From NCBI GenBank assembly GCA_963710415.1, contig CAVQAH010000024.1:150234-214233 (forward strand): 64,000 nt of DNA, given 5' to 3'. Each line of letters starts with the position of its first letter. Position 1 is the stretch's first letter. Made by a program: the position numbers and the translations under genes. This DNA is from an uncultured Acidobacteriota bacterium (GTDB lineage: Bacteria; Acidobacteriota; Vicinamibacteria; Vicinamibacterales; 2-12-FULL-66-21). The notes under the pieces were generated by a model, which saw nothing but the letters and a program-made list of their open reading frames with translations, was not told where the DNA came from and made no database searches. Positions 2,805-64,000 of this stretch are shown here, in pieces.

Positions 2805-2839
2805 TTTCCGATTTCCGATTTCCGATTTCCGATTTCCGA
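2805..2839. repeat. Tandem heptamer array TTCCGAT x5
   Basis: Five perfect TTCCGAT units read directly. A partial copy 'TTTCCGATTTCCG' lies at about 2701-2713. The same unit family occurs at 25411-25455 and 59831-59965. Confidence 0.9.
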
Positions 2840-2863
2840 TTACACTGACTTCCACCACTCGGC

Positions 2864-8086: not shown

Positions 8087-8830
8087 CAGCCGCCAGGATG
8101 ACGAGCGTTTCGGCGGTCAACAGGGCGTGCGCCAACAGCGACGGCATCTGCCCATCGACCAGGACGCTCCGCGAGAACAGGATGATCGGCGTCGGCGGCC
8201 AGAGATACAGATAGGCGTGCACACGCTCGGGAAGGATCTGCAGCGGATAGATGATCGGAGCGACGAAGAACCCCGCGTGGCTGATCACCTCCCAGACCTG
8301 ATTCAGATCCCGGTACTGCATGAACAGAACGCTGGCGGCGAGCGAGAATCCGGCCACGATCGCCACGTAGTGGATCAGGTACACCGCGTAGAGCCCGACA
8401 TGCGACAGGCGACTGGGGCGCGCCCGGTCAGCGTCAGAAACGTAATCAGCACCACGGAGAACAGGACGAGCGTGATCACCGCGTTCGACGCAGACGTGAC
8501 GACAACAACCCAGGAAGGGAATCTCGCCTTGTTGAGGAGGAAGCCCTTCGCCCGCAGCGACAGGAGGCCCATCTTCGTGGATTCCTGGAAGAACTCGTAG
8601 AGAAACAGGCCGATGATCAGATCCAGTTTGTACTGACGTTCCCCTGCGAACACGTACGAGAACACGGCCATCAGCACCACGAACATCGCCAGCGGCTTGA
8701 GCAGGGCCCAGACGAACCCTCCCAGCGTGCCGTGGTAGCGGGTTTTGAAGTCGGTGCGGATCAGCGTCCAGACAAGGCCGCTGTACTGTGCGCGACCAGG
8801 GCGCAGACCGGCGGTGGCGGCTGAAATCAT
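8019..8830 (-). CDS. wzm: ABC-2 type polysaccharide export permease (Wzm-like), one frame break
   Basis: ORF 8375..8830 reads 'LVWTLIRTDFKTRYHGTLGGFVWALLKPLAMFVVL...'. It continues in ORF 8019..8867 as 'YLIHYVAIVAGFSLAASVLFMQYRDLNQVWEVISHAGFFVAPIIYPL'. The break is near 8410. Confidence 0.8.
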
Positions 8831-8865: not shown

Positions 8866-10074
8866 ATGTCGTTGCTCAGGATTCTGCACGTCGTCCCCTA
8901 TTTCGAAGACGCCTGGGCTTACGGTGGCATCCCAAGGGTCGCGGCTGCAATGACGCGCGGCCTCGCACGCCGTGGACACCACGTCACCGTTTGCACCACG
9001 GACGCATGCGATGCGGAGACCCGTCTGGATCCATCCGGTGTCGCCGCACGCGCCGGCGACCTGGATGTCCGGGTCTTTCGTAACGTCTCGAATCGACTGG
9101 CCTATCACTGTCAGGCCTTTGCGCCAAGGGGCCTGATCCGTTTTCTGCGTGACACCGCCGGGTCGTTCGACGTGGCACACCTGCACGCGTGCCGCAATCT
9201 TCCAGGTTCGATCGCGGCTCGCGAGCTTCGGCGCGCCGGCGTGCCGTACGTGTTGTCGCCGAACGGTACGGCTCCACTGATCGAGCGTCGTATCCTGCTC
9301 AAACGCCTGTTCGATGCAGCCGGCGGCCGGCATGTGATCGAGGGCGCAAACCGTGTACTTGCGACGAGCGAAGCCGAATTTCGTCAACTCGTGGAAACCG
9401 GCATCCCACGCCATCGCGTGACCGTCGTTCCGAACCCACTCGATCTCGGAGAATTCTCGGATGTTCCCGCTCGCGAGATATTCCGCCGGAAGCATGGCCT
9501 CGGAGACGGTCCGATCGTGCTGTTTCTCGGAAAGCTGACGCCACGGAAAGGTGTCGATGTCCTTCTGCACGCCTTTGGCCTGGCCACCGACACGGCGCGC
9601 GCGGCTGGTGATCGCAGGAAACGCCATGGGCATGGGTGCGACTGCTCGAGAGACTGTCAGCCGGCCTCGTTCTTTCCAGCCGCGTGACGCGCGTGGGGTT
9701 GCTGCGAGGCCGCGAACGCCTCGAGGCGCTGGCGAGCGCTGACGTCGTCGTGTATCCGTCGAGAGATGAGGTGTTCGGCCTCGTACCTCTCGAAGCGCTC
9801 CTTTGTGGCACGCCGGTCATCGTCTCGAACGACTGCGGCTGCGGCGAGGTCATCGGCCGCACCGGCGGCGGACACATCGTCCCCTTTGGCGATCGGCGCA
9901 CGCTCGCGGGAGCCATCGACTCGATTCTTGAGATCGCCGGCCCTCTGGAAGACGCGCGCCGTCTCCGCCGGACGCAAGGCTCGGGAATTGTTCGCCGCCG
10001 AGATCGTCTGCGCGCAGTTAGAGAGCCTGTACACCGACGTCGCGCATGCACGTCGATCGGCGGAGACCGGTCGC
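8866..10074 (+). CDS. GT4 (GT-B) glycosyltransferase domain, several frame breaks; apparently in frame with the next GT2
   Basis: The ATG at 8866 opens 'MSLLRILHVVPYFEDAWAYGGIPRVAAAMTRGLARRGHHV'. Pieces lie in ORFs 8788..9687, 9551..9742, 9636..10115 ('VVVYPSRDEVFGLVPLEALLCGTPVIVSN') and 9766..10317 ('ARELFAAEIVCAQLESLY'). Breaks are near 9590, 9650 and 9960. Confidence 0.7.
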
Positions 10075-14518: not shown

Positions 14519-14597
14519 GTCGTCGCTCGTCGCTCGGAAGGCCTGTAACCGTGTAGTTCACCGATCTTCGAGCACGAACTCCGAGCCACGAACTACG
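14519..14597. repeat. Intergenic heptamer/inverted-repeat element
   Basis: 'TCGTCGC TCGTCGC', 'GTAGTTC' (14553-59) paired with 'GAACTAC' (14590-96), and direct 'GAGCACGAACTCC GAGCCACGAACTAC'. Confidence 0.6.
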
Positions 14598-25410: not shown

Positions 25411-25455
25411 CCCGATTCCGCTTTCCAATTCCCGCCATCCGATTTCCGCTTTCCC
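25411..25455. repeat. Degenerate heptamer array (TCCGATT/TCCGCTT type)
   Basis: 'GCCCGAT TCCGCTT TCCAATT CCCGCCA TCCGATT TCCGCTT TCCC'. Same unit family as 2805-2839 and 59831-59965. Confidence 0.75.
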
Positions 25456-55946: not shown

Positions 55947-57179
55947 ATGGCGTTCGATACGTTGCGCGCCAACAAGCTGCGCTCCGCGCTGACGATTCTC
56001 GGCGTGGTGATCGGCGTGACGTCGATCGTCGCGATGACCTCCCTCATCCGCGGTTTCGGGGATCAGATGTACCAGCTGATCCGGCAGATGGGCTCCGACA
56101 CGGTTTACCTGCAGAAGTTCGGCATGGGCAGCTTTGCGAGCGGACGCAGTTTTCTCGACGTACTGAAGCGCCCCAACCTGTCCGAGGAGGACGCCAAAGC
56201 GATCGTGAAGGGGGCGCCGTCGGTGTCGATGGTGGGGCTGCAGCTTGGTGGCGGCCCGGGATCCCAACCCCAGCGCATGACCTATGGCAACCAGTCCACC
56301 AAGCAAATGATGGTCATGGGCGCGAGCGCGAACTTCGCCGATACGAACTATATCGCTCTGGAGAACGGCCGGTTCTTCAGCGACTACGAGGTCTCGCATC
56401 GTCGGGCCGTCGTCGTGCTCGGCTATGCGCCGGCCTCGACGCTGTTTCCCAATCTCGATCCGATCGGCAAGCGCGTCCGGATCGGCTCGACGGAGTTCAC
56501 CGTCGTCGGCACCTTGGGCAAGCGGCCGAGCCCGCTCGGCAATCCCGACGAGTTCGCGGTCATTCCCCTGACGACTTACGAGAAGCTTTTCCGGTCGCCG
56601 GTGATTCGCGGCATCCTGACACGGTTCCTGACGATCACGGTCGTACCCCGAGCGGGCGTGCCGAGCGACCAGGTCATTCGCGAGATCGAGGATGTGATGC
56701 GCAGCCGCCATCGGCTGCGGCTCGACGAAGAAAACGACTTCGACATGTTGACGTCCGACGCGGTGATGAAGATCGTCGATCAGCTCACCCAGGCCGTCGC
56801 GCTGGCGCTCGTCGTGATCTCGTCCATCGCGTTGCTGGTCGGCGGCATCGGCGTCATGGCGATCATGACCATTTCCGTGACCGAGCGTACGCGCGAGATC
56901 GGCATCCGCAAGGCGATTGGCGCGCGCCGCCGTGAAATCCTGGTCCAGTTTCTCCTCGAGGCAGTCTTCCTGACGTCGGTGGGGGGGCTGCTCGGCATCC
57001 TGCTCGGGAGCGGAATCGGCCTCGTCGTCAACCAGCTCGCCAACTTCCCCGTGTCGTTGCCGTTGTGGTCGTTCGCGCTGGGCTTCGCGTTCTCGGCGAC
57101 GGTCGGCATTTTCTTCGGCATGTATCCCGCGGTCCGCGCCTCCCGGCTCGACCCGATCGAGGCGCTGCGGTACGAATAG
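55947..57179 (+). CDS. MacB/FtsX-type ABC permease (no ATPase domain), intact
   Basis: ORF 55947..57179 (410 aa) with 'MAFDTLRANKLRSALTILGVVIGVTSIVAMTSL' and 'VTERTREIGIRKAIGARRREI'. Confidence 0.85.
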   Translation: MAFDTLRANKLRSALTILGVVIGVTSIVAMTSLIRGFGDQMYQLIRQMGSDTVYLQKFGMGSFASGRSFLDVLKRPNLSEEDAKAIVKGAPSVSMVGLQLGGGPGSQPQRMTYGNQSTKQMMVMGASANFADTNYIALENGRFFSDYEVSHRRAVVVLGYAPASTLFPNLDPIGKRVRIGSTEFTVVGTLGKRPSPLGNPDEFAVIPLTTYEKLFRSPVIRGILTRFLTITVVPRAGVPSDQVIREIEDVMRSRHRLRLDEENDFDMLTSDAVMKIVDQLTQAVALALVVISSIALLVGGIGVMAIMTISVTERTREIGIRKAIGARRREILVQFLLEAVFLTSVGGLLGILLGSGIGLVVNQLANFPVSLPLWSFALGFAFSATVGIFFGMYPAVRASRLDPIEALRYE

Positions 57180-57184
57180 AGCGG

Positions 57185-57233
57185 CCAGCTGCCAGCTACC
57201 AGCTGCCAGCTGCCAGCTACCAGCTACCAGCTA
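57185..57233. repeat. Heptamer array CCAGCT(G/A) x7 (left flank of four-helix-bundle gene)
   Basis: 'CCAGCTG CCAGCTA CCAGCTG CCAGCTG CCAGCTA CCAGCTA CCAGCTA' read directly. Confidence 0.9.
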
Positions 57234-57302
57234 CATGTTGAGTTCCCTCCTACCTGAGCATCAAGATTGCAGGCTGCGGCGCGTCTCATTCAGGAGGACG
57301 CG

Positions 57303-57658
57303 ATGAAAGACTACCGCAAGCTCGTGGTGTGGCAGAAAGCGCACATGCTCACGCTGCAGACGTACGAACTTTCTCCGCACTTACAGAAACCCGAAGCGTG
57401 GCCTCTGCGCGATCAGCTGTTGCGAGCAGCGATCTCGATTCCCTCCAACATCGCTGAAGGCGCCGGCCGCGGCACCGATCCAGACTTTCGTAGATTTCTA
57501 TGGCATTCCTTGGGTTCGTCGAACGAACTTGAGTATGATCTCCTTCTTGCCCGAGACCTCCGGTTCCTGCAGGGTGACATTGCATTGCCGGCTCACCGGC
57601 GCAGCTGGAGGAGGTCCGGCGGATGCTCACGGGCCTCGTACAGTCGTTGAACTCGTGA
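57303..57658 (+). CDS. Four-helix-bundle protein (23S rRNA intervening-sequence protein / Avd-like family, PF05635-type), one frame break
   Basis: ORF 57267..57650, from the Met at 57303. It reads 'MKDYRKLVVWQKAHMLTLQTYELS...LRDQLLRAAISIPSNIAEGAGRGTDPDFRRFLWHSLGSSNELEYDLLLARDL'. A family-typical C-terminus 'AQLEEVRRMLTGLVQSLNS*' is in another frame, with a break near 57590. Confidence 0.75.
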
Positions 57659-57673
57659 TAACGCCGAGTCGCC

Positions 57674-57722
57674 GGCAGCTGGCCGCTGGCAGCTGGCGAC
57701 TGGCAGCTGGATGCTGGCAGCT
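57674..57722. repeat. Heptamer array GGCAGCT-type x7 (right flank, inverted relative to the left flank)
   Basis: 'GGCAGCT GGCCGCT GGCAGCT GGCGACT GGCAGCT GGATGCT GGCAGCT'. It contains 'GGCAGCTGG', the reverse complement of 'CCAGCTGCC' in the left array. Confidence 0.9.
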
Positions 57723-57740
57723 GACGCGGAGGTTGCCCTT

Positions 57741-59828
57741 ATGAAGGTCTATGACGCTCAAACATTGAGAAATGTGGCGCTCGTCGGTCATTCGGGCGCC
57801 GGCAAGACGCAGCTCCTTTCGGCGCTGCTCTTCGACGCCGGCGCTGTCAACCGTCTGGGTCGGGTCGACGATGGCTCGAGCGTGACCGACTACGACGAAG
57901 AAGAAATCGCCCGCAAACACACCCTCTCGTCCAGCCTCGCCTACGCTGAATGGAACAAGAACAAGATCAATTTCATCGACACGCCGGGAATGGCGAACTT
58001 CCTGAGCGAAGCGCGCGCGACGCTGCGCGTGGTGGATACCGCTCTGGTCGTCGTCGACGCCGTGTCCGGCGTTCAGGTATCGACCGAAAAGGTGTGGGCT
58101 ATTGCCGATGAGCTCGAGGTGCCCCGGCTCGTCGTGCTCAACCGCGTGGATCGCGAGCGCGCCAGCCTCGATCGGTCTCTGGATTCACTGCGCACGGTGT
58201 TCGGTCGCGCCGTCGTGCCGATTCAGCTGCCCATCGGTGAAGAGAAGTCGTTCCGTGGAGTCGTCGATCTCGTGGCCATGAAGGCCTATACATTCGCCAC
58301 CGACGGCAGCGGCAAGCCGACCGAAGGAGCGATTCCCGCCGAGCTCGAGTCGCGCCGCCAAGACCGCCCGTGAGGCGCTCATCGAAATGGTCGCGGAAGC
58401 CGACGATTCGCTCATGGAGAAGTTTTTCGAGGCCGGCACGCTCACGCAGGACGAGCTGGTCGGCGGGCTCAAGCGCGGGCTTCAGCGCCGCGCGGGTTTT
58501 CCCCCTCGTCTGCACGTCAGGCATCACGAATGTCGGCATCCAGCCGCTGCTCGACGCCATCGTCACCTACGTGCCTTCACCGGCCGAACGGCCGTTCAAG
58601 GTGGACGATGCGACGATCGCGAGCACGGACAATGGGTCGAGCGCAGCGTTCGTCTGGAAGACGGTGGCTGACCCCTTCGCCGGCCGCATCACGATGTTCC
58701 GCGTCGTCTCGGGAACGATCAAGGCCGACTCGACGCTGCACAACGTGACCAGGGACGTCAGCGAGCGCCTTGGCCATGTCGTGCTGCTCCAGGGCAAGAC
58801 GCAGAGCAACGTCCCCGAGATCAAGGCGGGCGATGTCGGCGCGGTCGCCAAGCTGAAGGAAACGCAGACGAGCGACTTGCTGGCTGACAAGGGCGTCAAA
58901 TTCAAGATCTCGCCGATCAAGTTCCCCGAACCGGTCATTTCGTACGCGATCGAGCCGAAGAGCCGGGCCGACGAGGAAAAGATCAGCACGTCTTTGCACC
59001 GGTCTGCAGGAAGAGGATCCGAGCATCAGCTACAACCGCGACGCGCAGACGAAGGAACTGCTGCTGGCCGGTCAGGGGCAGTCGCACATCGAAGTCACCG
59101 TCGCCAAGCTGAAGCGGCGCTTCGGGGTCGAAGTGAACCTGAAGCTTCCGCGCATTCCCTACCGCGAAACGATCACCGCGGCAACCGAAGCGCACGGGCG
59201 TCACAAGAAGCAGACCGGCGGCCACGGGCAGTTCGGCGACTGCAAGGTGAAGTTCGAGCCGCTGCCGCGCGGCGCCGACTTCGAGTTCGTGGACGACATC
59301 TTCGGCGGGTCGATCCCGCGTCAGTACATACCTGCCGTCGAGAAAGGTCTGCAGGACGCGCGACTGCGCGGTTTCCTCGCCGGCTTCCCGATGGTGGATT
59401 TCCGCGCGACGGTGTTCGACGGCTCGTTCCACCCGGTCGATTCGAACGAGCTTTCGTTCAAGATGGCCGCGTCCCTGGCGTTCAAGGACGGCATGTCCCG
59501 CGCGCGCCCGACGCTGCTCGAACCGGTGATGGACGTCGAGGTGTACGCGCCGAGCGATTTCGCGGGTGATTTGATGGGCGACCTGAACAGCCGCCGCGGA
59601 CGCATCGGAGGAATGGATACGCGCGGCGTTTCGACGATCATCCGCGCGAAGGTGCCGATGTCCGAGATGCTGACCTACGAACAGCACCTCACGTCAGCCA
59701 CTGGCGGCCGCGGCTCGTATCACATGGAGTTTTCGCACTACGAAGAGGTGCCGTCACACCTGCACAGCAAGATCATCGCAGCGTCGAAGGCTGAGCGTGG
59801 AGGACACGAGGCGGCTGAGGAGTCCTGA
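57741..59828 (+). CDS. Elongation factor G family GTPase (EF-G paralog type), three frame breaks
   Basis: The Met at 57741 opens '[31 protein letters not shown]...[12 protein letters not shown]...VLNRVDRE' in ORF 57711..58373. The middle is in ORFs 58387.. and 58370... Domains IV-V are in ORF 59133..59828 ('[17 protein letters not shown]...[15 protein letters not shown]'). Breaks are near 58350, 58480 and 59000. Confidence 0.85.
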
Positions 59829-59830
59829 GA

Positions 59831-59965
59831 ATCGGAAATCGGACATCGGAAATCGGAAATCGGAAATCGGACATCGGACATCGGACATGGAATCCGATTG
59901 TTCGACACTGAGTCGCCCGATTGTCGACTATCCGATGTCCGATGTCCGATGTCCGATTTCCGATT
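59831..59965. repeat. Large heptamer palindrome (ATCGGAA/ATCGGAC x8 opposite TCCGATG/TCCGATT x5)
   Basis: The left arm is 'ATCGGAA ATCGGAC ATCGGAA ATCGGAA ATCGGAA ATCGGAC ATCGGAC ATCGGAC'. A ~44-nt centre separates it from the right arm 'TCCGATG TCCGATG TCCGATG TCCGATT TCCGATT'. It lies between the convergent EF-G gene and rplQ. Confidence 0.9.
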
Positions 59966-60593
59966 AAGAGCCGCCGGCTTTACGTGGCGATGACGTCTTG
60001 GCGCCTTTGCCGCGGGTATCGGCACGGCCACCCTTGACGCGCTCCCGGTCCGGCTTGGCTTTGCGGGTCGTTTCCTCGCCAGTCTCGCCTTCCGCGTCGG
60101 CTTTCTTGCCGCGCAGCCGTTCCGCAGCGGCGCGCAGGCGTCCGCCCACACCCTTGGCCTTCGGCTTCGCTGCCGCCTCGGACTTCTCGGTCTCGGCGTT
60201 GGGATTGAACTCGCTGCCGACGAGCTCGATCTGTGCGACTTCCGCGCTGTCGCCGCGGCGGTAACCAATCCGCAGAATACGGGTGTAGCCGCCAGGCCGC
60301 CCCTCGAAGCGGGGCGCGAGCGTGTCGAAGAGCTTCGCCACGACGTCGCGGTCCTGCAGGTCGCGAAGCACGAGCCGCCGCGCGTGCAGTGTCTTGCCGT
60401 TCTCGCCGCCGCCGGCAATGCCACGTTTGGCGATGGTGATGATCCGCTCCACGAACGGACGCAGCTCTTTTGCGCGCGGAACCGTCGTTTCGAGGTGCTC
60501 GTATCGGAGCAGCTCCTGCGCCTGGTTCCGGAGCATCGCGATACGATGATTCGTCACGCGCCCGAGCTTACGATGGCCTACTCTGTGTCTCAT
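59964..60593 (-). CDS. rplQ: 50S ribosomal protein L17 with ~85-aa Lys/Ala/Glu-rich C-terminal extension
   Basis: ORF 59964..60593 (209 aa). It reads 'MRHRVGHRKLGRVTNHRIAMLRNQAQELLRYEHLETTVPRAKELRPFVERIIT'. Confidence 0.95.
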   Translation of the reverse strand: MRHRVGHRKLGRVTNHRIAMLRNQAQELLRYEHLETTVPRAKELRPFVERIITIAKRGIAGGGENGKTLHARRLVLRDLQDRDVVAKLFDTLAPRFEGRPGGYTRILRIGYRRGDSAEVAQIELVGSEFNPNAETEKSEAAAKPKAKGVGGRLRAAAERLRGKKADAEGETGEETTRKAKPDRERVKGGRADTRGKGAKTSSPRKAGGS

Positions 60594-60614
60594 TGCCGTG
60601 ATCCTTGTTGCTTG

Positions 60615-60699
60615 CCGGGGACTCGCGCTCGGATCCGTCGTCGGGTGGCTCGGCGCGACGGACTTCGAGCACCGAGTCCCGAGCCCCGAGTCCCGGCAC
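60615..60699. repeat. Inverted heptamer element (CCGAGTC type) in the rpoA-rplQ spacer
   Basis: 'CCGGGGACTCGCGCTCGG' (60615-32) is complementary to 'CCGAGTC CCGAGCC CCGAGTC CCGG' (60672-95). Confidence 0.7.
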
Positions 60700-60707
60700 G
60701 ATCTAGT

Positions 60708-61754
60708 CTACTCCTGAGACTGCGCTGCCGGCTGATCGAGCCGCATGCCGAGGCTCAGACCCATGCCCGTCAGGATTTCCTTGATCTCGTTCAGCGACTT
60801 TCTGCCGAAGTTCTTGGTCTTCAGCATCTCGCCTTCGCTCTTCTGCACGAGCTCGCGGATGGTCCTGATGTTCGCGTTCTTCAGGCAGTTGTACGACCGC
60901 ACCGACAGCTCGAGCTCCTCGACGCTCTTGTCGAGATTCTCGTTGAGCGCCGCGCGCGGCGTATCGGACGACGCGTCCTGCTGCATGTCGCCGGACTCTT
61001 CGAGGTTGATGAAGATGTTCAGGTGGTCGCGAATCAGCTTGGCCGAGAGCGACATCGCATCGCGCGGCGTCACCGATCCGTTCGTCCACACGTCCACCGT
61101 CAGCTTGTCGTAGTCGGTGGCCTGACCGATACGCGCCGCCTCGACCAGGTAGTTCACCTTCTTGATCGGGGAGTGCACGGAGTCGATCGGGATCCAGCCG
61201 ATGCCGAGATCCTCGTCGAAGTTCTTGTCCGCCGCCACGTAGCCACGGCCGCGCTTCACGCGCATCTCCATGTGCAGCTTGCCGCCCTCGGCCACGGTCG
61301 CGATGTGCGCTTCGGGCTCGAGGATTTCGACGTCGGCGTCGGTCTCGATGTCGCGAGCCTTGACCGGGCCCGCCTTGTCCACGCGCAGATACAGCGTCTT
61401 GGTCATGTCGACGTGCATCTTGAGCGGAATCTGCTTGAGGTTGAGGATGATATCCGTCGCGTCCTCGACGACCCCGGGGATCGGAGAGAACTCGTGCAGG
61501 ACGCTGTCGATCTTCACCGCGGTGACGGCAGCGCCGTCAATCGAGGAGAGGAGCACGCGCCGCAGCGCGTTGCCGATCGTCGTCCCGAACCCGCGCTCGA
61601 AGGGCTGCGCGTAGAACCGTCCGAACCTGTCCGTGAGCGTCTCGCGCTCGAACTCGAGCCGCTTCGGCCGCTGAAAACCTTTCCAGAGCATTCTGTCCGT
61701 TCCTTTCGCGTTCATGCGCCCGACTTCCGGACGCCGCCAGACCTTCGGGTTCAC
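60708..61754 (-). CDS. rpoA: DNA-directed RNA polymerase subunit alpha
   Basis: ORF 60708..61754. The probable start is the Met at 61691 ('[15 protein letters not shown]') or at 61715. Contains '[16 protein letters not shown]' and the C-terminal domain '[23 protein letters not shown]'. Confidence 0.95.
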
Positions 61755-61800
61755 TCCCCGCCTCCCGCCGCAGGTCTGGGATGGCTGCGGGCGAGGAGCT

Positions 61801-61967
61801 AGCTACTGACGTGCTTACGTGCGACGCTGCTGCACGTGCTACGTGCCACTCCATGCCGATTGTGACGTGCTTACATGCGACATGCGCACGTGCCGTGACA
61901 CGGCAATGGCACGTGACAGGCAGCACGTGCGCACCGTGAGCACGTCCGCACGTAAGCACGTGACACT
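61801..61967. repeat. ACGTGC-type heptamer array in the rpsD-rpoA spacer
   Basis: About 165 nt of units such as 'GACGTGC TTACGTG ... GCACGTG CTACGTG CCAC ... GGCACGT GACAGGC AGCACGT GCGCACC GTGAGCA CGTCCGC ACGTAAG CACGTGA'. The region is self-complementary because it is ACGT/CACGTG-rich. Confidence 0.75.
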
Positions 61968-62597
61968 TCACTTGCTATACAACTCCACAATCAGCTGTTC
62001 CTGCACGGGCAGGTTGATCTGCTCGCGTGTGGGCAACGACTGAATCCGTCCGGTCATGTTGCCGGCGTCGAACTGCAGCCAGTCCGGGATGCCGCGTCCT
62101 TTGACCTCTTCGATCGCGTGCTGGATCGCCGTGTTCTGGGCGCTCGTGCCGCGGACCGTGATCACGTCACCTGCCTTCACCGAGTAGGAGGGCACGTCGA
62201 CCTTGCGCCCGTTGACCAGGAAGTGCCCGTGGCGAACGAGCTGGCGCGCCTGCGGACGCGAGGTGGACAGGCCGAGGCGGTAGATGACGTTGTCGAGCCG
62301 TCGCTCGAGCAGCTGCAGCAGCGTCTCGCCGGTGATCCCGCGGGTGCGGTCGGCCATCTCGAAGTAGCGCCGGAACTGGTTCTCCAGCACGCCATAGATG
62401 CGCTTGACCTTCTGCTTCTCGCGGAGCTGCAGCCCGTAGCCCACGAGCTTCGCCTTGCGCAGCTTGCCATGCTGCCCCGGCGGCAGGTTGCGCTTCTCGA
62501 TGGCGCACTTCTCCGTGTAGCAGCGCTCTCCCTTCAGAAAGAGCTTCATCCCTTCGCGCCGGCAGAGCCGGCAGACCGCTCCGATGTAACGTGCCAT
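61968..62597 (-). CDS. rpsD: 30S ribosomal protein S4
   Basis: ORF 61968..62597 (209 aa) with '[36 protein letters not shown]'. Confidence 0.95.
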
Positions 62598-62618
62598 TCT
62601 TTTGTCCTTCTGTCCACT

Positions 62619-62696
62619 GCAAGCTCCAGCTCTCAGCTTCAGCCCCTCGACGTCACTGCGCTCACCGCCCGACCTGAAGCTGGCAGCTGGAGCTGC
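62619..62696. repeat. ~23-bp-stem hairpin of CAGCT-type heptamers in the rpsK-rpsD spacer
   Basis: 'GCAAGCTCCAGCTCTCAGCTTCAG' and 'CTGAAGCTGGCAGCTGGAGCTGC' pair at about 21 of 24 positions, with a 31-nt loop. Confidence 0.8.
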
Positions 62697-63151
62697 TACA
62701 CTCGCCGACGCTTCGGTGGCCGGCAGCCGTTGTGCGGAATCGGCGTGACGTCGCGGATCGACTTCACGTCGATCCCGATCGTCTGCAGGGCGCGAATCGC
62801 CGACTCGCGTCCGGCGCCCGGGCCCTTGACGCGCACTTCGACACTACGCATGCCGAATGCCTTGGCCGCATTACCAGCCGCGATCGCCGCCTGCGTCGCC
62901 GCGAACGGCGTCCCCTTGCGCGATCCCTTGAACCCGATACCGCCGGCGCTCGACCATGCCACCACCGCCCCCTCGGGATCGGTGATCGTCACGATCGTGT
63001 TGTTGAAGGAAGCCTGGATATGCGCGAACCCGTGGTGCACGATGCGCTTCTCGCCACGCTTCTTGAACGTCTTCTTTTTCGTCGGGCGTCCGGCCGGTTT
63101 TTTTCCGCCTTCAGCCGGTGCTGTCGGATCTACGGGGTCATTTTTTGCCAT
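62696..63151 (-). CDS. rpsK: 30S ribosomal protein S11 (about 20-aa N-terminal extension)
   Basis: ORF 62696..63151 (151 aa) with '[42 protein letters not shown]...[16 protein letters not shown]'. Confidence 0.95.
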
Positions 63152-63155
63152 GTGT

Positions 63156-63531
63156 CTACACCGTCTTCTTCTTCGCGATCGCGCCCTTGCGCGGACCCTT
63201 CCGCGTACGCGCGTTGGTGCGCGTCCGCTGTCCGCGCACCGGGAGGTTCCGCCGGTGGCGCATCCCGCGCCAGCTGCCGATTTCCATCAGCCGCTTGATG
63301 TTCATCGAGATCTCCTTGCGGAGATCGCCCTCGACGCGGCCCTGTTCCTCGATCACGCGGCTGATCTTGCGGACGTCGTCTTCAGAGAGGTCCTTGACGC
63401 GGATGTCCCCGCTCACAGCCTGCCTCGCCGAGGATGTCGTTCGACCGTTTCCGTCCGATCCCGTAGATGTAGGTCAGGCCGACCTCGATCCGCTTCGTCC
63501 GTGGAAGATCCACACCAGCTATACGTGCCAT
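63156..63531 (-). CDS. rpsM: 30S ribosomal protein S13, one frame break
   Basis: ORF 63156..63416 has '...[42 protein letters not shown]'. The N-terminus '[34 protein letters not shown]', from the ATG at 63531, is in another frame. The break is near 63420. Confidence 0.9.
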
Positions 63532-63540
63532 ATCTTTGAT

Positions 63541-63613
63541 CCTTGTAGTCGTGAGTCGACTAGTCGTCAGTCAGTCGACTGACTGTCGACTGCCGACTGC
63601 CGACTCCCGACTG
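63541..63613. repeat. Inverted heptamer element (GACTGNC type) in the rpmJ-rpsM spacer
   Basis: The left arm is 'GTAGTCG TGAGTCG ACTAGTC GTCAGTC AGTC'. The right arm is 'GACTGTC GACTGCC GACTGCC GACTCCC GACTGTC'. Confidence 0.8.
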
Positions 63614-63727
63614 TCATCCCTGTCTCTGCTTGTGCTTCTGATTCGGGCAGATCACCCGCACCACGCCGCGGCGGCGGACGATCTTGCACTTGTCACAAAT
63701 TCGTTTGACCGATGCTCTGACCTTCAT
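63614..63727 (-). CDS. rpmJ: 50S ribosomal protein L36
   Basis: Not in the ORF track because it is too short. My own minus-strand translation gives '[37 protein letters not shown]' (37 aa). Confidence 0.9.
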
Positions 63728-63745
63728 GACGCGCTTGTGCCTTCC

Positions 63746-63946
63746 TTACGAAATCTTCTCGACGATCCGGCCGCGCGTGAGATCCCGCGGCGACAGCTCG
63801 ATGCGAACGCGATCTCCGACCAGCACCCGGATGAAGTTCTTGCCGGGCCCACTCGGTGCGTGCGCGGTCACCTGCCGCTGCTTGTCGATCCCCACCTTGT
63901 AGAGACCGTGCGGCAACTGCGCCAGCACCGTTCCTTCAACCACCAC
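63746..63946 (-). CDS. infA: Translation initiation factor IF-1
   Basis: ORF 63746..63946 (66 aa, GTG start) with 'VEGTVLAQLPHGLYKV...KNFIRVLVGDRVRIELSPRDLTRGRIV'. Confidence 0.9.
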   Translation of the reverse strand: MVVEGTVLAQLPHGLYKVGIDKQRQVTAHAPSGPGKNFIRVLVGDRVRIELSPRDLTRGRIVEKIS

Positions 63947-63954
63947 CCTCGCTC

Positions 63955-64000
63955 AACTACGCGCTGCCGCACGTCGCACGTGGCACGTCGGCACGTCGCA
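63955..64000. repeat. GCACGTC-type heptamer array upstream of infA (runs off the window)
   Basis: 'GCACGTC GCACGTG GCACGTC GGCACGTC GCA' read directly. Confidence 0.7.

Follow-up and report, generated by a model that had tools for sequence, protein, structure and literature searches.

The DNA analysed here, referred to as the window, was a stretch of 64,000 nucleotides from an uncultured Acidobacteriota bacterium (Vicinamibacteria; Vicinamibacterales; 2-12-FULL-66-21), taken from contig CAVQAH010000024.1 (positions 150,234 to 214,233) of assembly GCA_963710415.1. The genes for elongation factor G (EF-G) and ribosomal protein L17 (rplQ) converge there on a spacer of 135 nt between their stop codons (59829–59963), and a palindrome of tandem heptamers occupied all of it. 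Tandem Repeats Finder (TRF) delimited a left array (59830–59885; period 7, 8.0 copies, 93% matches, unit AATCGGA) and a right array (59931–59964; period 7, 4.9 copies, 96% matches, unit TCCGATG). An original prediction, made by reading the DNA without database searches, had described eight plus five inverted heptamer units filling the gap; this was borne out by TRF and by the sequence itself, with a centre of 45 nt that contained stretches resembling decayed units (TCCGATT, GTTCGAC, CCCGATT and GTCGACT).

The right arm was the reverse complement of left units 4–8 or 5–9, and the variable base, which runs A A C C C along the inner units of the left arm, had its mirror image in the G G G T T on the right; the outer four units of the left arm were without a partner. 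The best inverted repeat paired 59851–59885 with 59931–59965 (35 nt, 97% complementary, 45 nt apart), and looser registers of the arms extended to 44 nt at 86% complementarity. Both arrays reached a stop codon. The rplQ stop TAA (59964–59966) overlapped the outermost right unit, such that its last two bases lay inside that unit. Arrays that touch both stops are expected if coding sequence alone limits their growth. The ninth left unit was one base short, which could be a sequencing error, since single-base indels were found in nearby genes of the same assembly.

When folded as RNA, the + strand of the spacer reached -79.8 kcal/mol, compared with -50.2 +/- 3.8 for shuffled sequences (z = -7.8), and the - strand reached -85.1 kcal/mol (z = -8.6); none of 200 shuffles was as good in either case. 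Folded as DNA, the spacer gave -51.9 kcal/mol (z = -8.9). The very stable hairpin of up to about 35 bp that had been proposed for both strands was therefore recovered, in the 35-nt repeat at 97% as well as in the folds. Equally, the noted absence of a T-tract held on both strands of the spacer, and a terminator consensus scan of 59829–59963 returned zero sites, with no core of A-run, GC-rich stem and T-run in the centre. Intrinsic terminators have a GC-rich stem of about 5–15 bp and a loop of 3–8 nt, with a U-tract 3' of the stem and, if bidirectional, an A-tract 5' of it. The element resembles bidirectional terminators in its position between convergent genes and in a hairpin usable on both strands, but it lacks the A-run and T-run, and its stem of 35–44 bp enclosing an interior of 36–48 nt falls outside their dimensions.

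Near-perfect RNA stems of 35–44 bp are barriers to 3' exonucleases and substrates of RNase III. If transcription across the element is assumed, its 35 bp at 97% exceed the approximately 20 bp of near-perfect double-stranded RNA expected of an RNase III-type stem. No Rfam covariance model, including those of the L17 downstream element and of Acidobacteria motifs, matched anywhere in the window at the gathering score; at E values up to 1, the sole match within 57000–64000 was a chance one to a microRNA model. Two open reading frames (ORFs) ran through the arrays (59797–59967 on the + strand and 59738–60424 on the - strand) because AATCGGA is without a stop codon in all six frames, but they showed no sign of coding and were rejected as genes.

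A class of period-7 palindromes with matched arms and fast turnover

The element was the longest and most regular of a set of heptamer elements in the window (Table 1). Tandem runs of period 7 numbered seven, against 0–2 for each other period from 4 to 12, and about six of ten heptamer elements were concentrated in the 7 of 64 kb that constitute the ribosomal-protein region. In most spacers of the rpsM-rpsK-rpsD-rpoA-rplQ cluster, inverted arrays of heptamers made up a hairpin, and the unit differed from one spacer to the next; the GACTCGG unit of the rpoA-rplQ spacer occurred also in L023, L145 and L146 (relatives are given by locus number). The sequence ATCGGAMATCGGA was found 16 times in the window with up to one mismatch, compared with 0.30 expected. 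The unit of the EF-G/rplQ element occurred at three places in the window: within the element, at 25438–25450 (one mismatch), and in a solo array at 2805–2841 that had no inverted partner and preceded a HEAT-repeat gene by 24 nt. The unit was also noted in degenerate form at 25412–25454. The left junction of the solo array was repeated directly some 100 nt earlier, as gcaggcgcttttccgatttccg (region 2688–2841).

Relatives were identified by a scan of species-representative genomes for L17, which produced 19 loci (best match 92% identical); nearly all were metagenome-assembled genomes (MAGs) labelled Acidobacteriota, Vicinamibacterales or Vicinamibacteria, and three were labelled otherwise (two Bifidobacteriaceae, one Prosthecobacter). 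Additional contigs were obtained through exact-protein look-ups; the window's own L17 protein had no record in the contig index. The sample of this lineage of soil bacteria comprised the window and 23 related Vicinamibacterales loci (L001–L023), amounting to 323 kb centred on one genomic region. It contained 63 arrays of period 7 (2478 nt), almost all non-coding, as opposed to seven at most for any other period from 4 to 15. These 63 arrays used 33 distinct canonical units, which were largely locus-specific and of which 23 contained AGCT.

Identity at lag 7 was 0.40 or more in 48 of 129 crude intergenic spacers, other lags giving about 0.25; these spacer counts are approximate because the crude GC3-based caller miscalled some genes. 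Almost all of the 48 folded as hairpins with inverted heptamer arrays for sides. Explicit inverted pairs of arrays were identified in 22 of them, compared with none of 58 control spacers of low periodicity, and folding per nucleotide was stronger in the heptamer spacers (p = 4e-5). Hairpins of the class also separated co-directional ribosomal-protein genes; they immediately followed stop codons, preceded the next ribosome-binding region and, by the terminator scan, had no U-tracts. The architecture was seen in independent assemblies, namely the short-read Joint Genome Institute contigs L020, L021, L145 and L146, in addition to long-read MAGs. Heptamer arrays also split short-read assemblies, contigs ending within them, and can mislead gene callers since some units are free of stop codons in every frame.

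At the gap orthologous to the EF-G/rplQ spacer, the unit differed from genome to genome and yet the two arms were still matched (Table 1). Four relatives had no heptamer palindrome at this position (L007, L013, L015 and L016). In L003, L004, L006 and L010, the arrays flanked a canonical bidirectional terminator with A-run, GC stem and T-run; ordinary L-shaped terminators with T-runs were found in these four and in L016 and L023. The terminator cores inside the arrays indicate that the lineage uses ordinary terminators and that the arrays are an addition around them.

Turnover at the gap was fast. The window, L001 and L020 were approximately 93–97% identical in the coding flanks on both sides, while their spacers were unalignable: AATCGGA arrays in the window, decayed TCGGACA-like units in L001 and an ATGGGCN palindrome in L020. 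By contrast, L021 (L17 91% identical) carried the same unit as the window, starting in the same stop codon, but in different number and order; its rplQ-side array had at least 7.5 units (A A A C A C A), a lower bound because this short-read contig ends inside the array, against five in the window. A comparison of copy number between strains was one of the checks that the original prediction had named. In the rpsD-rpoA spacer, ACGTGCN arrays of very unequal length adjoined an invariant leader in the window, L001, L022 and L023, and the pair L145 and L146 had an identical L17 protein but substitutions in both arms of the palindrome. Taken together, these comparisons support the slippage-type gain and loss of units suggested earlier, and reveal rapid replacement of the unit in addition.

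In L144, EF-G and rplQ are not adjacent, but the EF-G stop was still followed by a pair of AATCGGA-like units (TAG TA AATCGGA AATCGAC, 8553–8580); the rplQ side of that genome (L022) carried a plain hairpin, as did L023. This is suggestive, but only that, of a rearrangement in this relative that broke within the palindrome.

A second arrangement of inverted arrays bracketed a gene. In the window, a gene of the 23S_rRNA_IVP family (IVP hereafter; bAvd-like four-helix bundle) lay between arrays at 57180–57723 that formed an inverted repeat of 55 nt at 80%, or 47 nt at 85%, with arms 433–444 nt apart. The IVP gene was situated between a MacB-like permease and EF-G in at least ten genomes, i.e., the window and nine relatives (L003–L006, L008–L010, L012 (about 8900–9650) and L144 (5886–6468)), and in every sampled genome that carried it inverted heptamer arrays flanked it, with arms about 430–500 nt apart. 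These arms co-varied: AGCTRCC/GGYAGCT in the window, TCAGCTN/AGCTGAG in L010, CCAGTTN/AACTGGA in L012 and CCCGCTT/AGCGGGA in L005. Co-variation of arms some 450 nt apart is the best hint obtained that pairing itself matters. Many IVP homologues were found on contigs of only 500–1500 bp, a pattern that assemblies broken at the arrays would produce.

The lineage offers a natural experiment, in which the sequence of the same spacers has been repeatedly replaced while period, arm matching and position persist. Arrays around terminators in some genomes and around one conserved gene provide a contrast with which to ask whether selection on RNA or copying at the DNA level is responsible for the matching of the arms, and this same contrast bears on whether the stems terminate, process or stabilise transcripts.

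Table 1. Features of the window and array units at the gap orthologous to the EF-G/rplQ spacer in relatives.
Feature	Position	Strand	Unit or content	Evidence
EF-G gene	57711–59828	+	three frames in this assembly	tblastn against intact L001 EF-G
EF-G stop codon	59826–59828	+	TGA	ORF list, Pfam EFG_IV/EFG_C
Left arm	59830–59885		8 tandem (A/C)ATCGGA units; variable base order A A C A A A C C	TRF, sequence
Degenerate ninth left unit	59886–59891		CATGGA, one base short	sequence
Centre	59886–59930		45 nt; small inner hairpin within	sequence, folds
Right arm	59931–59965		5 tandem TCCGAT(G/T) units, order G G G T T	TRF, inverted repeat
rplQ (ribosomal protein L17)	59964–60593	-		Pfam Ribosomal_L17, E 1.8e-34
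rpoA-rplQ spacer hairpin	60613–60698		GACTCGG / CCGAGTC	TRF 60666–60699, inverted repeat, fold -56.6 kcal/mol
rpsD-rpoA spacer element	61809–61965		nested inverted ACGTGCN-type units	TRF, inverted repeats
rpsK-rpsD spacer hairpin	62622–62694		CAGCTNN / AGCTGNN-type	inverted repeat 21 nt at 90%, lag-7 identity 0.38
Element by rpsM/rpmJ	63547–63612		GTCGACT / GACTGCC-type around palindromic centre	TRF 63581–63613, inverted repeats
Hairpin between two glycosyltransferase genes	14521–14597		outside ribosomal cluster	lag-7 identity 0.45, inverted repeat, Pfam of neighbours
Solo array	2805–2841		TTTCCGA (unit of the EF-G/rplQ element), 5.3 copies, 100% matches	TRF, pattern search
IVP cassette, left array	57180–57234		AGCTRCC, about 7 units; directly after MacB-like permease stop	TRF; pairs with 57668–57723
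23S_rRNA_IVP / four-helix-bundle (bAvd-like) gene	57303–57650	+		Pfam PF05635, E 2.1e-27, profile 1–87 of 106
IVP cassette, right array	57668–57723		GGCAGCT-type; ends just before EF-G start region	TRF
Orthologous gap, L003 and L004			arms TTCCAGN/GCTGGAA	
Orthologous gap, L006			arms TGCTGAA/TTCAGCA	
Orthologous gap, L010			arms CCAAACK/TTTGGMG	
Orthologous gap, L011			arms AAAAGGN/CCTTTTN	
Orthologous gap, L012			arms CTCAGGN/CCTGAGC	
Orthologous gap, L020			palindrome ATGGGCN	
Orthologous gap, L145 and L146			arms CCAACTC/GAGTTGG	

Origin of the arrays and possible roles of the hairpin

The reading given somewhat better than even odds here is that the EF-G/rplQ element is one copy of a lineage-wide type of palindromic heptamer microsatellite, which grows by slippage with its arms kept matched, and whose RNA stem functions not as an intrinsic terminator but as a processing site or a barrier at the 3' end. 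Replication slippage would gain and lose 7-nt units, and the array would expand until both stop codons were reached. The arms would remain mirror images either through selection on pairing or through copying from arm to arm, whether by gene conversion between the inverted repeats or by template switching in the hairpin. An origin by slippage plus arm matching is proposed with high confidence. The data establish the anatomy of the element, the class and its period of 7, the rapid turnover and the match between the arms, while the mutational mechanism is one that we infer. A transcript crossing the element, whether from EF-G on the + strand or rplQ on the - strand, would fold into a near-perfect stem of 35–44 bp. 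Most plausibly, this stem would block 3'-to-5' exonucleases or be a processing site for a double-strand-specific (RNase III-type) enzyme, and it would thereby delimit each of the two convergent mRNAs at its 3' end, as do REP (repetitive extragenic palindromic) hairpins in Escherichia coli operons. Such a role, as a REP-like 3' boundary or processing stem, is advanced with moderate confidence.

Several points weigh against this reading. We infer the RNA role in its entirety. When G-U pairs and fold energy were compared between the sense and antisense strands of co-directional heptamer spacers, the sense fold was the more stable in 23 of 36 cases (p = 0.02, mean -3.4 kcal/mol), but this weak bias is near the shift seen in non-heptamer controls (-3.05 kcal/mol) and was given no weight as evidence. 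Where a terminator occupies the centre, terminated transcripts would hold only one arm and the arms could pair only in read-through RNA; selection at the RNA level is thereby a weaker explanation of the arm matching, and a purely DNA-level process fits. The EF-G/rplQ element itself has no terminator core, so both genes must end transcription somehow and the hairpin may contribute. The conserved leader before rpoA could mean that the ribosomal genes have separate promoters. Finally, this reading gives no reason for a period of seven.

A by-product of neutral or selfish DNA, i.e., a hypermutable palindromic microsatellite without selected role that is tolerated in any non-coding space, is a possible alternative, if a tentative one. 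It would account for the complete sequence replacement between close relatives, for the growth of the array up to both stops, for the lack of a clear strand-specific RNA signature, for the existence of solo arrays, and for copies at the orthologous gap that were decayed (L001) or absent (L007, L013, L015 and L016). In many bacteria, no long simple repeat is more strongly over-represented than the heptamer, and polymerase slippage was proposed as the cause (Mrazek 2007, as cited in PMC4679880 and PMC4692102). A neutral origin is harder to reconcile with the recurrence of hairpin architecture at orthologous spacers of many genomes despite sequence replacement, with the strong clustering in the ribosomal-protein region of the window, or with the co-variation of the IVP arms, which is difficult to achieve by local template switching alone over some 450 nt.

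The original prediction had viewed the hairpin as a possible bidirectional terminator or insulator that halts RNA polymerase from both genes without a U-tract. This now appears unlikely. The element does lie exactly between converging stops, its stem is very strong on both strands, and something must end both transcripts at a place where it has no canonical terminator though four relatives have one. Ribosomal-protein genes such as these are co-transcribed in other bacteria. Hairpins of the same class filled the spacers between co-directional ribosomal-protein genes and, if co-transcription is assumed here too, they cannot be efficient terminators because they would cut off essential genes. Furthermore, ordinary T-run terminators were present in the lineage, in four relatives inside the arrays themselves, and in vitro work with mycobacterial RNA polymerase reportedly shows that hairpins without a U-tract terminate poorly. 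A dedicated terminator without U-tract was therefore unsupported.

A more elaborate proposal, and quite an unlikely one, is that the arrays are a maintained form of RNA punctuation. A dedicated process would write locus-specific stems, or keep their arms matched; in highly expressed operons, these stems would delimit the cistrons, and they would back up terminators through double-stranded read-through RNA; the enclosed IVP or bAvd-like product could be the trans-acting partner.

It is very unlikely that the arrays are a periodic binding platform, where the 7-nt repeat, in single-stranded RNA or in DNA, is recognised by a protein. Cold-shock-domain proteins place roughly one domain per 7 nt, and three 7-nt units span two turns of the DNA helix. 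Such a platform would explain why period was conserved and sequence was not; where a terminator lies in the centre, the 3' untranslated regions of the two convergent mRNAs would each contain a single-stranded array of the same sense, and binding of CspB to heptamer repeats has been discussed (PMC4679880). However, recognition of a specific sequence is improbable given 33 different units, the complementarity of the arms would be unnecessary, and no candidate protein was identified.

The unit recurs, being found at three sites of the window and on at least 120 metagenome contigs that differ widely in GC content, and this might suggest a mobile element, like REP, BIME (bacterial interspersed mosaic element) or MITE (miniature inverted-repeat transposable element) sequences, copied into the gap from elsewhere. 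This is highly improbable, since only the 7-nt unit was shared and not the centre or flanks, each spacer had its own unit, terminal inverted repeats and target duplications were absent outside the arrays, and at the orthologous gap the units decayed gradually and changed in place. An artefact of assembly in a repeat-rich long-read metagenome bin, which the single-base indels in the window's EF-G and IVP genes might recall, is barely credible when the unit recurs at this junction in the independent short-read contig L021 and many independent assemblies made by different methods share the architecture. A CRISPR-like array was rejected together with these two.

Comparison with known repeats

Over-representation of heptamers in bacteria has been recognised since 1990–2007. 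The repeats described here agree with known heptameric repeats in having tandem 7-nt units in at least three to four copies, intergenic position, an excess of period 7 and variable copy number. They depart from them in having 33 units among 63 arrays where the known repeats have one or a few units dispersed genome-wide, although AATCGGA does recur at 2805–2841. Locus-specific units, a near-saturated ribosomal cluster, arrays around terminators and around a gene, and the mirrored order of variants are the distinguishing features. A literature search for such repeats in Acidobacteria or Vicinamibacter, or for their association with IVP genes, found none.

In Xanthomonas, GGGAATC arrays form 70–75 convergent (inverted) pairs per genome, with the potential for stem-loops or cruciforms (Rehm et al. 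2015, PMC4692102). Their length and sequence vary between close species, the type (single or inverted pair) is usually kept, and most are transcribed (PMC4692102). Like the EF-G/rplQ element, these are intergenic tandem 7-nt units in a high-GC genome and include inverted pairs. Unlike the present arrays, which belong to a different phylum, fill whole spacers of ribosomal genes, wrap terminators and a gene, and are mostly incapable of forming a quadruplex, the Xanthomonas repeats consist of essentially one G-rich unit genome-wide and have been studied as a G-quadruplex former.

Several different intergenic tandem heptamers occur in cyanobacteria also, as the short tandemly repeated repetitive (STRR) sequences of Calothrix and Nostoc, and GGGGAYT in Nostoc. 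The STRR heptanucleotide repeats are said to have been described by Mazel et al. in 1990. In Nostoc, only a few paired inverted repeats have been reported, and a small fixed set of units is dispersed genome-wide in place of the locus-specific units seen here. The TAACTGA arrays of marine Beggiatoaceae are likewise intergenic, with 2–6 copies, and a post-transcriptional role was proposed for them; they differ in that one unit alone is used, directly oriented and placed immediately before start codons, with only one inverted case reported (MacGregor 2015, PMC4679880).

Among palindromic elements, REP and BIME sequences are the favoured functional analogue of the EF-G/rplQ element. REP is a conserved sequence family of 20–40 nt, spread by a RAYT transposase. 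As with the present class, REP and BIME are imperfect palindromes within operons and between convergent genes, but the sister hairpins here are built of tandem units and share period and architecture rather than a sequence family. Similarly, the arrays differ from MITEs in that neither centres nor flanks are shared and that, at the orthologous locus, one unit gives way to another in situ. REP and BIME are thought to stabilise upstream mRNA or to affect termination or supercoiling (PMC3733652).

The IVP cassette (57180–57723) resembles an rRNA intervening sequence with its 23S_rRNA_IVP gene, in that a long stem surrounds an ORF of the IVP family. The stems of rRNA intervening sequences are cut by RNase III. 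The cassette differs in its location between protein-coding genes instead of in 23S rRNA, and in a stem made of heptamer arrays; the EF-G/rplQ element encloses no gene.

Heptamer arrays in metagenomes, flanking genes and the rpoA leader

A scan of metagenomes for a four-unit AATCGGA array showed the unit to be widespread, on at least 120 contigs (L024–L143); neither L17 nor EF-G was present on any of the matches listed. Also among these matches, 84 contigs contained an exact block of four AATCGGA units, aaaTCGGAAATCGGAAATCGGAAATCGGAaat, and in 74 of the 84 it was in frame inside a long ORF (for example, L033/L037/L143, L034/L042, L026/L108/L121, L032/L070, L136 and L089). The exact-block contigs mostly had a GC content of about 0.55–0.60. 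The in-frame block encoded SEIGNRKSEI or IGNRKSEIGN, and was at the same position in orthologous genes from different samples. Judged by motifs, the host genes look like RimO, UvrA, TrpD, RecJ, MetRS and GlnRS, and the block resembles an in-frame insertion that has become dispersed. Under the RNA-punctuation proposal above, an insertional process of a related kind might also account for these identical arrays in many housekeeping genes of another lineage.

Different heptamers abutted one another in L027, L045, L051, L055, L063, L124, L129 and L140, as in (CATTGGA)n(CATCGGA)n or (ATGCGGA)n(AATCGGA)4(AATTTGA)n. It looks as if a variant of the unit arises and then spreads along the array. The GC content of these contigs spanned 0.37 to 0.72, which shows that heptamer arrays occur in many taxa.

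With regard to the flanking genes, comparison with the intact EF-G of L001 (97–99% identical) identified three single-base insertions in the EF-G gene of the window, at 58350, 58477 and 59004, which shifted the frame from 0 to 1, to 2 and back to 0. The IVP gene of the window had lost its conserved C-terminus through a change of frame. These changes are either assembly indels of a long-read bin or real pseudogenes.

The leader 5' of rpoA, on the - strand at about 61692–61803 (TAGCTCCYCGCCCGCAGCCATCCCAGACCTGCGGCGGGAGGCGGGGAGTGAACCCGAAGGTCTGGCG...), contained a hairpin and adjoined the hypervariable ACGTGCN arrays. It was invariant among close relatives (L001, L022, L023 and others) and recognisable in more distant ones. 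It matched no Rfam family and could represent a ribosomal-protein or rpoA leader that has gone unrecognised; the GTG at 61754 annotated as the start of rpoA probably lies too far upstream.

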